Source of the DNA: a bacterium
GTDB lineage: Bacteria; Patescibacteriota; Minisyncoccia; UBA6257; UBA9933
DNA: 64,000 nt
Direction: 5' to 3'
Assembly (NCBI GenBank): GCA_021791445.1
Contig: JAJYWO010000010.1
Span: 1,304 to 65,303, forward strand
Part shown: positions 6,323 to 40,663 of the stretch, one piece after another
Layout of the letters: each line of letters opens with the position of its first letter
How positions within the stretch are numbered: position 1 is the stretch's first letter
Made by a program: the position numbers and the translations under genes
Notes under the pieces: model-generated
The model's database searches: none
Told to the model about the DNA's origin: nothing
Seen by the model: the letters and a program-made list of their open reading frames with translations, nothing else

Positions 6323-7642
6323 ATGAATAGAATCTATTTTGATTATGCGGCAACAACGCCTATGGACCCGCTAGTGAAAAAAGCGATGGCGCCTTATTTC
6401 TCCGATCGATTTGGAAATCCCGGCTCGCTTCACTCTTTCGGCCAAGAAGCCATGGCGATGGTTGACGAATCGCGCGAAAAAATCGCCAAAGCTGTTAATG
6501 CGGATTTTCGGGAAATAATTTTTACGGGATCGGCCACTGAAGCGAACAACTTGGCGCTGCGCGGCATTGTAAGGGCGGCTCGGCTATTTTCTGACGGAAC
6601 CGGGCGTTCGCTCGCTCCAGCGGCGAGCGCCGCCCTTGACCTCTCGGCGGCGCGCCTGCCTTCGGTAGACCAAGCGCGCGCCGCCTCCGAGACATTCCGC
6701 ACGAAAACAGCCGAGCCACCCTACAGAATTATAATTAGTAAAATAGAACACGATTCAATTTTGGAAACCGCGCGCGACCTTGAACGCGACGGCATTGAAG
6801 TAATCTATCTACCCGTCAATAAAAATGGGCTTATTGATTTAGAAAAACTGAAAAAATCGCTCAATGAGCGGACGATTTTGGTTTCCATAATGCACGCAAA
6901 TAATGAAATAGGGACTATCCAACCAATCGCGGAAATTGCGAAAATTATAAAACAATTCAAAAACAACAAAGAAAAATTTTTTTCGACCTATCCACTTTTT
7001 CACACTGACGCTGTCCAAGCTTTTCAATTCCTGAATTGCGACGTCAATAAACTCGGCGTTGATTTAATGACTTTATCCGCGCATAAAATTTACGGCCCAA
7101 AAGGAATCGGATGTTTATATGTAAAATCCCAAAATTCTAAATTCAATCCGCCAGCTGGCGGACTAAATCCAATTATCACCGGCGGCGGGCAAGAATTCGG
7201 CTTGCGCTCCGGCACGGAAAATGTTCCGGCAATCGCCGGATTCGCCAAAGCCATTGAACTCGTCTCTAATTCGCGCGAATTAGAGAATAAACGCGTTAAA
7301 CAACTTGCCGATTATTTTTGGGAAGAAATTAAAAAAATAGAGCCGAAAGCGGAAATAAATGGAATGTTAAATGCCAATAAATTGCCGAATATTTTAAACA
7401 TTTGTTTCCCCGGTCAGAATGCGCAAGATTTGCTGATAAAACTTGATTTGAACGGCGTGGCGGTTTCCAGCGGCTCGGCTTGTTCGGCGCGCGCCACCAA
7501 ACCGTCGCATGTTCTCAAAGCCATCGGCTTAAGCGACAAAAAAATTAAAAGCAGTTTGCGTTTTAGTTTGGGAAAATTCATGACCAAAAACGAATTAAAC
7601 CGCGCGCTCAAAATAATAAACAGGATATTAAAAAAAGTATAA
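6323..7642 (+). CDS. iscS: Cysteine desulfurase (NifS/IscS family, PLP-dependent) carrying a 47-codon GC-rich in-frame insertion
   Basis: PLP-lysine motif [12 protein letters not shown] and active-site Cys loop SSGSACSA. N-terminal region shows the aminotransferase class V pattern. Confidence 0.88.
6577..6717. repeat. 141-bp GC-rich palindromic element inserted in-frame within iscS. Its 15-bp terminal inverted repeats are ggctcggctattttc / gaaaacagccgagcc
   Basis: Sharp local GC jump. Length is divisible by 3. It encodes a low-complexity Ala/Ser/Arg stretch ([48 protein letters not shown]) where IscS homologues have a short loop. Shares the cgttcgctcgc motif with the element at 40504-40643. 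Confidence 0.65.
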
Positions 7643-7686: not shown

Positions 7687-8091
7687 ATGAACATAAATAA
7701 AAAAATTGACGCTAAAATTTTTAAAGCCTATGATATTCGCGGCATTTATCCGGACGAAATAAACGAAGAAATTGTTTCGGAAATAATTGCGGCGGTCGTT
7801 AAAAATTTCAAACCGAAAAAAATTATTATCGGCCACGACGCCCGCCTAAGTTCGCCAAAACTTTATCAGGCGCTAATAAAGCAATTTAAAATTTTAAATT
7901 TAAAATTTAAAATTATACCCACCGGCTTAATAACAACTCCCATGCTTTATTTTTTGACAAACTATTCCAATGCCGACCTCGGCATAATGATTACCGCTTC
8001 ACACAATCCCAAACAATATAACGGCTTAAAAATCGTCGGCAAAAACGCCGTTCCTATAAGCGGAAAACAAATATGGAAAATAATTTCATAA
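7687..8091 (+). CDS. Phosphomannomutase/phosphoglucomutase, N-terminal domain I fragment carrying the active-site Ser in TASHNP
   Basis: TASHNP phosphoserine motif. The frame ends at 8091 while domains II-IV continue in another frame from 8073. Confidence 0.75.
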   Translation: MNINKKIDAKIFKAYDIRGIYPDEINEEIVSEIIAAVVKNFKPKKIIIGHDARLSSPKLYQALIKQFKILNLKFKIIPTGLITTPMLYFLTNYSNADLGIMITASHNPKQYNGLKIVGKNAVPISGKQIWKIIS

Positions 8092-9008
8092 AAATTTACG
8101 CCAATTTTCTTAAAAAAAGAATCCAGCCACAGAAAAAATTAAAGGTGGTTTTTGATTGTTCTAATGGCGCTGTGGGACCAACTATTAAAAAATTACAAAT
8201 TACAAATCCCAAATTACAAATTTATCTTATTAACGAAAAACCGGACGGCAATTTCCCCGGACACGGACCCGACCCCTGGGCAAAAGGCGCGATGGAACAG
8301 CTTCAAAAAGAAGTTTTGCGGCAAAAAGCGGATTTGGGAGTTATTTTTGACGCTGACGGCGATAGAGTTTTTTTTATTGATAATCTTGGCTGTCCTGTTG
8401 AGCCGGATATTATCGCGCGTTTATTGATTTGGCATTTAAAGCCGCGCAAGGCGGTTTATGATATTCGCGCCGGCTGGCTCATTAAAAAATTAAAAATTGA
8501 AAACTTAAAATTGAAAACTTCGCGGGTGGGGCATTTTTACATTAAAAAACTAATGCGGAAAATCGGCGCGGATTTGGGCGTGGAAAAATCCGGACATTAT
8601 TATTTTGCCATCCGAAACTTTGACAAAGGAGAATTATATTACGACTCCGGAATTTTGGCGGCAATTGAAATTATAAACGCGGTTTCGAAATTGCCTTACT
8701 CTTTGGCGAATTTCATTGATTTGCTGCCACAATATTATAGAAGCGGAGAAATCAACATAAAATCTCAAATCTTAAATCTCAAATCTCAAAAATTATTTAA
8801 AGAGATTGAAAGAAAACTTAAAATTCAAAATTTAAAATTTAAAATTAATGTTTCTCATCTCGACGGCCTAACAATGGAATTTTTGGATTATTGGTTTAAC
8901 ATTCGGCCGTCAAACACCGAACCTTTAATAAGATTAAACATGGAAGCTGAAGACAAAAAAATTTTAGAAAAAAAGAAAAAAGAGTTAATAAAACTTTTAA
9001 AGAATTAA
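8073..9008 (+). CDS. Phosphomannomutase/phosphoglucomutase domains II-IV (DADGDR metal-binding loop). Together with 7687..8091 this is one gene broken by a frameshift near 8060-8095
   Basis: FDADGDRVFF Mg-binding loop and C-terminal domain IV. Overlaps the preceding fragment by 19 nt in a different frame. Confidence 0.75.
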   Translation: MENNFIKIYANFLKKRIQPQKKLKVVFDCSNGAVGPTIKKLQITNPKLQIYLINEKPDGNFPGHGPDPWAKGAMEQLQKEVLRQKADLGVIFDADGDRVFFIDNLGCPVEPDIIARLLIWHLKPRKAVYDIRAGWLIKKLKIENLKLKTSRVGHFYIKKLMRKIGADLGVEKSGHYYFAIRNFDKGELYYDSGILAAIEIINAVSKLPYSLANFIDLLPQYYRSGEINIKSQILNLKSQKLFKEIERKLKIQNLKFKINVSHLDGLTMEFLDYWFNIRPSNTEPLIRLNMEAEDKKILEKKKKELIKLLKN

Positions 9009-40503: not shown

Positions 40504-40643
40504 AAAAAGAGACAAATGTTTTCTTGCTACCGTTCGCTTGCCCAGCGAGCTCGCTCACTGGCGCCGCTCGCTCACTCTCCTCGCTTCGCTCGGAACCATG
40601 CCCGTTCGCTCGCGGAGCCGCGCTGCGAAAATATTTGTCTCTT
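40504..40643. repeat. ~140-bp GC-rich palindromic element immediately upstream of xerC. AT-rich outer inverted repeats (aaaagagacaaat / atttgtctcttt) enclose gctcgctcact repeats
   Basis: Strong local GC jump. No ORF. Shares cgttcgctcgc with the iscS insert. Confidence 0.6.
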
Positions 40644-40663
40644 TATTATATATAATCTAAAAC

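Follow-up and report, generated by a model that had tools for sequence, protein, structure and literature searches.

A GC-rich palindrome lying in frame within a patescibacterial nifS gene is probably one copy of a dispersed, structure-defined DNA repeat family

The 64,000-nucleotide stretch of Patescibacteriota DNA analysed here (contig JAJYWO010000010.1, hereafter the window) encodes a cysteine desulfurase of the NifS/IscS type, and a GC-rich palindrome lies inside its coding sequence. What kind of sequence is this palindrome, and how did it come to be part of the gene? The initial annotation described a GC-rich segment at 6577-6717 with 15-bp inverted repeats at its ends and nested palindromes between them, and the sequence agrees with that description. 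The palindrome as delimited here (6572-6722) is about 75% GC, compared with 40.6% for the window overall, and forms the top GC peak of the 64 kb (0.69-0.75 per 100 nt, with a maximum of 0.775 over 80 nt, versus 0.406). The 15-nt arms, GGCTCGGCTATTTTC and GAAAACAGCCGAGCC, have one mismatch. The inverted repeat is in fact longer, with 28-nt arms at 6572-6599 and 6695-6722 (82% complementarity). The predicted folding energy is -92 kcal/mol for the plus strand (z = -7.6) and -105 kcal/mol for the minus strand (z = -8.5), and 0 of 200 shuffled sequences folded as well in either case. From the evidence presented below, we consider it probable that the segment belongs, as one copy, to a family of DNA repeats that are dispersed, non-autonomous and defined by their structure, that occur in Wolfebacteria-like Patescibacteria, and that resemble the Rickettsia palindromic elements (RPEs) in behaviour.

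The product of the host gene matches cysteine desulfurases in the PDB with E = 1e-85, in two aligned blocks that leave out residues ~87-134. Its nearest homologues are NifS proteins of Candidatus Wolfebacteria and other Patescibacteria (55-74% identity, lengths 377-493 aa). Of the palindrome's three forward frames a single one is stop-free, and it is the frame of the host open reading frame (ORF), so that the frame is kept as first annotated. In an AlphaFold2 (AF2) model of the window NifS, computed with 37 homologues, the predicted template modelling score is 0.83 and low confidence is confined to residues 90-130, 271-280 and 283-291. The first of these is the insert, with a predicted local distance difference test (pLDDT) score of 36-41; the other two belong to another variable loop. 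The insert is located between helix 71-90 and strand 135-139 of the model. Together with the PDB alignments that skip it, this agrees with the surface-loop position that the initial annotation proposed to check.

The origin of the two arms can be read from orthologues with and without the insert. In the empty nifS gene of locus L080 the sequence is AGA GCA GCC|GCG AAA ACA GCT AAG CCA CCT, and in the filled gene of L001 it is AGG GCG GC[T TGG CAA TTT TC-core-...CGC A]CG AAA ACA GCC AAG CCG CCA. At the protein level, RAA-A-KTAKPPY of L080 corresponds to RAA-[41 aa]-KTAEPPY of the window. The comparison with L080 confirms that an insertion took place in frame, and it shows that the window gene gained a net 40 codons (120 nt) and not the 47 codons replacing a loop that had been proposed, since 6703-6717 is host sequence. 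Two other genes have sites of the same kind. In LepA, the empty L078 reads ...CCG TCA|GAA ATG CAG GCG GCG and the filled L079 and L062 read ...[CCT GTA TTT C-core-CAC] GAA ACA CAG GCG GCG; in several other empty LepA orthologues only the right-arm residues E(T/I/M/K)QA(A/S) are present. At the second site of a gene for a glycosyltransferase of the GT39 type, the empty L074 and L071 read ...AT(T)/GTA|AAA AC(T)... and the filled L073 reads ...ATC [CGC CGC CTA TTT TC-core-ACG] AAA ACA GGC GGC GGA TT. At all three sites where empty and filled states can be compared (nifS, LepA and GT39 site 2), the 3' arm is ancestral and starts with (G)AAA, and the 5' arm repeats it in inverted form. No clean empty site was found for RF2, MnmA and ParB, where the corresponding loops of the orthologues vary or hold palindromic inserts of other kinds. 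In the synteny comparison of the intergenic copy L042:9840 with L003, the latter carries a different palindrome at that place and there is no empty site to read.

An alignment of the flanks of 32 copies divides the element into three zones. The first is a conserved core of ~115 nt, extending from TC-TGACGGAACC to TTCCGCAC-GA. The second consists of 6-8 bp that are specific to subfamilies (TATTTTC/GAAAACA, TACTGCC/GGCAGCA, CCTGTC/GACAGG, CCGTC/GACGG). The third, of 8-14 bp, is different at every locus and still forms near-perfect inverted repeats. Between copies in different genes the identity of the core is 0.60-0.89, with most pairs at or above 0.65, and the identity of the outermost 10+10 nt is mostly 0.15-0.6, being higher only at the same gene site. 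The copies in RF2 and in an aminotransferase gene, for example, are 0.89 identical in the core and 0.19 in the outer arms, and those in GT39 site 2 and ParB 0.87 and 0.33, respectively.

Within the core, it is the nucleic acid that is conserved and not the peptide, because the core is carried in three reading frames and in both orientations. Six nifS genes were compared at the DNA level (P0001, P0034, P0012, P0029, P0075 and P0056). Motifs common to all copies of the window type, termed class a, are TTTTCTGACGGAACCG, CTCCAGCGG, CCTTGAC(T)CTC, GACCAAGC and TCCGAGACATTCCGCACGAAAAC. They are also present in L003 (P0034), where the reverse complement of the element sits at the same nifS codon, so that the nucleotide motifs are kept and the peptide is unrelated. 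The stems vary among orthologous inserts yet stay complementary; versions of the hairpin A stem include CGCTCGC/GCGAGCG, GCCGAC/GTCGGC, GCTTGC/GCAAGC, TTTTTTC/GAAAAAA and AATTTTGC/GCAAAATT. A second class of nifS inserts, class b, is built in the same way, except that its stems are AT-rich and its closing stem is longer. RNAalifold predicts from seven sequences a three-way junction of 53 pairs, 32 of which show compensatory double changes. When 29 distinct copies are considered, 93% of the paired cells pair and 46 of the 53 pairs are changed on both sides, including 17/17 pairs in helices 5 and 6 of hairpin B. None of 500 shuffles matched the pairing observed in the 29 copies, and slid controls also fell far below it.

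The pairing is almost exclusively of the Watson-Crick type (1318 of the 1434 cells in alignment A3 of the same 29 copies, with 20 G.U and 52 A.C). A DNA palindrome with copying from arm to arm therefore fits better than an RNA helix. It is noted that, among the cells without Watson-Crick pairs, A.C/C.A outnumber G.U/U.G; these correspond to wobble pairs on the complementary strand, which is the more stably folding one in the window copy. Among class-a nifS copies the unpaired core positions are 0.79-0.89 identical and the paired ones 0.56-0.79, compared with 0.35-0.54 at fourfold-degenerate sites of their host genes, which are near saturation. The core is thus either under sequence-specific constraint, such as recognition by its mover, or refreshed by movement or conversion.

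The core is not confined to nifS. A covariance model of the type-1 element, to which the window copy belongs, was built (R1; Table 1) and applied to the loci of the nifS orthologues. In L042 it matched, with 54 bits, an intergenic copy located close upstream of nifS, and it also gave weaker matches that include 40504-40646 of the window (14 bits). A DNA pattern made of the core motifs only retrieved 35 metagenome loci, in which R1 gave 39 matches, two further copies among them. The total of related copies is about 40, in contigs of Patescibacteria (Wolfebacteria-like). Homologous cores occur in at least eight unrelated gene families and in intergenic DNA, and nifS accounts for only L063, L065 and, probably, the truncated L077 among the 35 pattern loci. 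Other hosts confirmed with Pfam are RF2 (PCRF and RF-1 domains), ParB, LepA, MnmA, a class I/II aminotransferase and a PMT_2/GT39-type glycosyltransferase. The GT39 gene of L073 contains two copies, one GT39-type copy shares its genome with the nifS copy of L003, and QZGF01000001 and QZGF01000008 represent two copies in one genome. The independent intragenic events are all in frame, stop-free and of a length divisible by three (9/9), and they use three combinations of frame and orientation, LepA and ParB carrying the core in other frames or on the other strand. About 12 sites lie outside genes, one of them just upstream of a pilin-like gene. A Pfam analysis of the ORFs flanking five non-genic copies found distinct genes (GlmS, P-type ATPase, ComM/YifB, RNase J and others), several of which run through to their last domain; these five copies are therefore not gene disruptions. 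No match to the type-1 or type-2 motifs was found in viral contigs.

Some details of the intergenic copies should be mentioned. They are often located 1-7 nt past the stop codon of a complete gene, or between convergent genes, in a terminator-like position (L058:3451-3616, L061:1644-1790, L068:1460-1616, L052:4336-4485 and L047:9853-10174). L047 has two copies 18 nt apart that are inverted to each other. In the 649-kb contig Ga0209542_10000011, a stretch of 219 nt, made up of one copy and ~50 nt of flank, is present twice in inverted orientation with 93.6% identity (L044:5523-5740 and L076:4965-5182).

The initial annotation had also linked the palindrome to a GC-rich element upstream of a xerC-like gene. 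This link is upheld: CGTTCGCTCGC is found in both places, and intermediate copies (L042:9840 and L005:2347) share CCATGCCCGCTCGGGCTCCGAGACA with the nifS type. The segment at 40504-40646 folds with -52.9 kcal/mol (z = -4.8), and its core is near-identical to those at L001:14350 and L040:4812. The match to R1 corresponds to an E value of about 0.3-1. An nhmmer search with the A4 profile gives weak matches to type-1 copies; the profile includes 40504-40646, whose own match is by construction. As judged from sequence, this segment is a distant subfamily member of the family. Coordinates of all features are collected in Table 1.

Table 1. Features of the palindrome, its host gene and the second element, in window coordinates
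Feature	Coordinates	Strand	Remarks
NifS/IscS-type cysteine desulfurase (class V aminotransferase)	6323..7642	+	439 aa; ORF list, PDB matches, homologues, AF2 model
Whole palindrome, arms and core	6572..6722	.	151 nt; 28-nt arms; fold z-scores (see text); covariance model R1, 140 bits, E = 7e-33
5' arm	6577..6591	+	Inverted copy of host 6703-6717 that came with the core; absent from empty L080; LepA and GT39 site 2 alike
Conserved core, three-way junction	6590..6704	+	~115 nt, TCTGACGGAACC ... TCCGAGACATTCCGCACGA; 32-copy flank table
Hairpin A	6602..6635	+	Stems covary among copies; loop motif CTCCAGCGG (6615-6623) constant
Hairpin B	6642..6692	+	Apical hairpin variable; bulge GACCAAGC (6668-6675) conserved
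3' arm	6703..6717	+	Ancestral host codons K-T-A-E-P, not inserted; in empty P0019/L080, P0041 and P0030 as (A/T)KT(A/T)KPP
Intergenic type-2 relative upstream of xerC-like ORF	40504..40646	+	Own locus-specific arms AAAGAGACAAATGTTTTC / GAAAATATTTGTCTCTTT; GC-rich core

In an alignment of 121 NifS sequences, the loop between the helix ending in (I/V)VK and the strand RIIxSxIEH is an insertion hotspot with 0 to ~50 extra residues. Class-a loops contain ...SETFRTKT..., class-b loops contain ...FQKQNNFAPAAKFSSPSAR...APAGCSSKQ..., and a third type consists of short AT-rich palindromic peptides. The loop of P0034 (L003), ...GRFRQKTTEPP, is obtained when the window element is reverse-complemented and translated. 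Remnant inserts are seen in P0020 (LFSDGTS-RTKT) and P0040 (LFS-ETFRAKKTEP), and many orthologues keep only the arms or fragments; L008, with GAAATTTTTTAATAATCAAAAAATTTC, has the class-b closing stem without the core. A second nifS hotspot contains a copy of the same superfamily in the opposite orientation (L005:2347-2507, 36 bits with R1). A protein-guided scan of GTDB genomes yielded 34 nifS loci, and a class-a or class-b insert was present in 0/34, the loop holding only short AT-rich palindromes or tandem repeats. A neighbour-joining tree of the 121 NifS cores is too weak to choose between one old insertion and repeated insertion.

Further observations concern this and other loops. L005 and L040 are the most similar host pair (74% amino acid identity, 0.60 at fourfold sites) but differ in the subfamily carried at the same codon (class a and class b); this hints at replacement or at repeated use of the ...|GAAAAC target. 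Three more NifS loops are insertion hotspots in other Patescibacteria (window ORF residues ~216-219, 273-279 and 350) and carry GC-rich or AT-rich palindromic inserts in frame. Short in-frame palindromes or tandem 7-8-mers occur in surface loops of many orthologues of the Candidate Phyla Radiation (CPR), among them the nifS loop of L006, L007, L008, L012 and L015 and the MnmA gene at L003:13439-14665; examples are GIRNQELGI...NSKFKIP, AAATCTCA repeated four times, and SAKDIFVDSDKFVVS. These short sequences may have been left behind by lost elements or made by template switching.

We have compared the family with small repeats known from other genomes. In PMC10969869, which summarises the work of Ogata et al., RPEs are described as repeats of ~150 bp that lie in frame in unrelated metabolic genes and are compatible with the protein folds. 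The likeness to RPE-1 and related families extends to the ~150-bp palindrome, the location both in intergenic DNA and in frame in unrelated housekeeping genes, the added peptide that the fold accommodates, the retention of copies at orthologous sites across species and the absence of a known mobilising enzyme. The present family likewise has a stable palindrome of ~150 bp, dispersed intergenic and genic copies, and in-frame insertions where the fold tolerates them. It differs in its hosts, Patescibacteria/CPR and not Alphaproteobacteria, in being GC-rich within an AT-rich genome, in the three-way-junction core with sequence-constant loops, and in outermost arms that are locus-specific inverted copies of host sequence; target-derived arms are not mentioned in the RPE literature consulted (PMC10969869). 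By analogy, then, the element would be RPE-like and not a member of the RPEs, the likeness being one of behaviour and not of sequence.

Of the two kinds of selfish repeat that the initial annotation had named, the RPE-like one stands, the family being dispersed and in frame in unrelated genes, and the strict miniature inverted-repeat transposable element (MITE) does not. MITEs are defined by terminal inverted repeats that are conserved, by direct target-site duplications and by a parent insertion sequence (IS) element. Repetitive extragenic palindromic (REP) sequences are 20-40 nt long, extragenic and linked to REP-associated tyrosine transposases (RAYTs). Like MITEs and the REP and bacterial interspersed mosaic element (BIME) repeats, the present elements are small, non-coding, structured and repeated, and they can fuse in frame with host ORFs. 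Their terminal repeats differ between loci and the flank table contains an inverted duplication of the target with no direct one, so that they are not classical MITEs. The REP/RAYT assignment was rejected for an element of ~150 nt that is often intragenic. Closer in some respects are the GC clusters of yeast mitochondria (GC42; PMC4478555) and the double-hairpin elements of Allomyces (Paquin et al. 2000, cited there), which are also GC-rich hairpin repeats of AT-rich genomes with an apparently constrained structure, an occasional coding location and an unclear way of movement. In GC42 the target is duplicated directly over a short length (AG), and conservation is higher in the stems than in the loops (PMC4478555). 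The mitochondrial elements are organellar and only ~40-80 nt long, whereas here it is the loops that are conserved and the target is duplicated in inverted form. Searches of open-access papers gave no description of such elements in CPR, Patescibacteria or Parcubacteria.

Polymerase template switching between inverted repeats is a further process to consider. It homogenises arms, can extend them from 5 to 16 bp and turns spacers around, in coding DNA as well (PMC8604942; PMC13100816). In the form of the Ripley model, described in the same sources, it would account for the strictly Watson-Crick 'covariation', for arms that grow out of host sequence and for the flipped core of L003. The described events are substitutions of a few bases inside existing repeats, and template switching at a single locus cannot supply a foreign core of 115 nt.

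A dispersed repeat family could give rise to these observations as follows. The core (~115 nt; a closing stem and two hairpins) would insert immediately 5' of A-rich host sequence (...|GAAAACAGCC...), and an inverted copy of the next 12-17 host nt would be added with it, resulting in a perfect outer stem that is specific to the locus. The ribosome would read through the 120 nt, and NifS would gain ~40 residues as a disordered loop, leaving the pyridoxal phosphate-binding fold unaffected. In essential genes, only insertions that are in frame and located in loops would survive. Later, template switching or recombination between the arms would homogenise them and could flip the core, as in L003; we infer that the arms were shaped and the core flipped by template switching or by fold-back synthesis at the base of the junction. 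Internal deletions would then wear down the core, so that orthologues are left with short palindromic 'footprints'. We raise more tentatively the possibility that the family represents an undescribed mode of DNA insertion, in which a hairpin or three-way-junction core is placed beside an A-rich target with an inverted duplication of 12-17 nt, by fold-back synthesis or by a hairpin-handling enzyme, and that, with its decay products, it may have given rise to a large share of the lineage-specific loop insertions in CPR proteins.

Several points tell against the dispersed selfish repeat as we propose it. No autonomous partner or transposase turned up beside the copies examined, although no systematic search for one was made. 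The 64 kb of the window hold one type-1 and one type-2 copy only, which suggests that the copy number per genome may be low. The filled and empty sites compared belong to orthologues and none to a single population, so that current mobility is not demonstrated by them. The core is far more conserved than neutral sites; pure junk would need homogenisation by movement or gene conversion, and some sequence-specific function is implied, for the element or for the host. A selfish rather than a useful character of the repeats is deduced rather than seen. The nifS site is filled in many lineages, scattered with remnant and empty states over a crude tree, and its history is either vertical descent with loss or repeated insertion. 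The insert in NifS is most likely translated through, a point argued from one basis, the conserved reading frame.

That same core conservation is what would be expected of a functional structured RNA (a cis-regulatory element, a small RNA or a ribozyme) acting in the mRNA and conserved for its RNA function and not by selfish spread. The strong covariation of the three-way junction, the retention of CUCCAGCGG, GACCAAGC and UCCGAGACAUUCCGCACG in the loops and bulge beyond the neutral rate, and the terminator-like positions shortly after stop codons speak for such an RNA. We nevertheless find it unlikely, considering that the core is situated inside unrelated housekeeping coding regions in both orientations, that its outer stem is made from host sequence, and that the scarcity of G.U relative to A.C cells fits a DNA palindrome better. 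An Rfam 15 scan of the whole window at gathering scores found one tRNA and otherwise nothing, and a permissive scan of 6500-6800 gave two chance-level matches (E of 1 or more) and no family for the palindrome, so that Rfam offers no match even at E = 10. Nor was an intron family matched there, which bears on the idea that the segment is an intervening sequence and is taken out of the transcript or the protein by an intron-like process, translational bypass or a mini-intein. In some yeast mitochondria, GC-rich hairpin elements that lie in genes of an AT-rich genome are bypassed, and a structure as stable as this one would obstruct ribosomes. The divisibility by three and the lack of stops in all nine genic insertions would be needless if the segment were removed, and we regard removal as very improbable. 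Inteins begin with Cys, Ser or Thr, end with His-Asn followed by Cys, Ser or Thr, and comprise at least ~130 aa; the insert has 40-47 aa (RLFSDGT...FRT), is followed by K or Y and lacks Cys/Ser/Thr junction residues, and this candidate was rejected.

Could the insert instead be an ancient part of CPR NifS, a lineage-specific domain or functional loop retained for what it does in the protein? According to the initial annotation, the same insert in distant lineages would be a sign of an old domain, and taken literally this is what was found: nifS orthologues of 58-75% identity carry it at the same codon, always in frame. The mobile-repeat interpretation still stands, since an inverted insert in one lineage and the same core in other genes indicate an old or repeatedly used site and not a protein domain. 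An orthologue encoding an unrelated peptide from the reverse complement, the translation of the same core in other frames in LepA and ParB, the deletion of most of the insert in many orthologues, the low pLDDT over the insert, and nucleotide loops conserved better than the encoded residues make a protein-level explanation highly implausible. The abrupt GC spike in an AT-rich gene might also suggest an assembly chimera, or a palindrome made locally without relatives. An orthologous insert is present in independent assemblies from JGI, ENA, NCBI and Logan, and homologous cores are known at ~30 other loci; the artefact considered in the initial annotation is thereby excluded, and the chance of any such origin is negligible. 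The dispersed, RPE-like DNA repeat family remains our preferred explanation.

The neighbourhood of the gene has a peculiarity of its own. Downstream of nifS, phosphoglucomutase/phosphomannomutase (PGM) is split into a domain-I ORF of ~130 aa (7687-8091) and a domain II-IV ORF (8073-9008) that overlap by 19 nt. The split is kept in several lineages (L001:11319-12759, L003:18290-19646 and L042:19418-20757). L001 is syntenic with the window, with ClpB, nifS and then the split PGM.

Most of what is documented on selfish palindromes lying in frame comes from Rickettsia, and a comparable family in CPR bacteria would represent its recurrence in another group with reduced genomes. The CPR copies sit inside essential genes (nifS, prfB, lepA, parB and mnmA). 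The three-way-junction core with inverted copies of the target is unlike the products of cut-and-paste transposons and points to insertion based on hairpins or replication. The R1 model and the core motifs provide a handle for finding further copies, and any mobilising gene, in closed genomes. The family offers a possible explanation for the many odd loop insertions of CPR proteins, which make the proteins longer and mislead both alignment and annotation.

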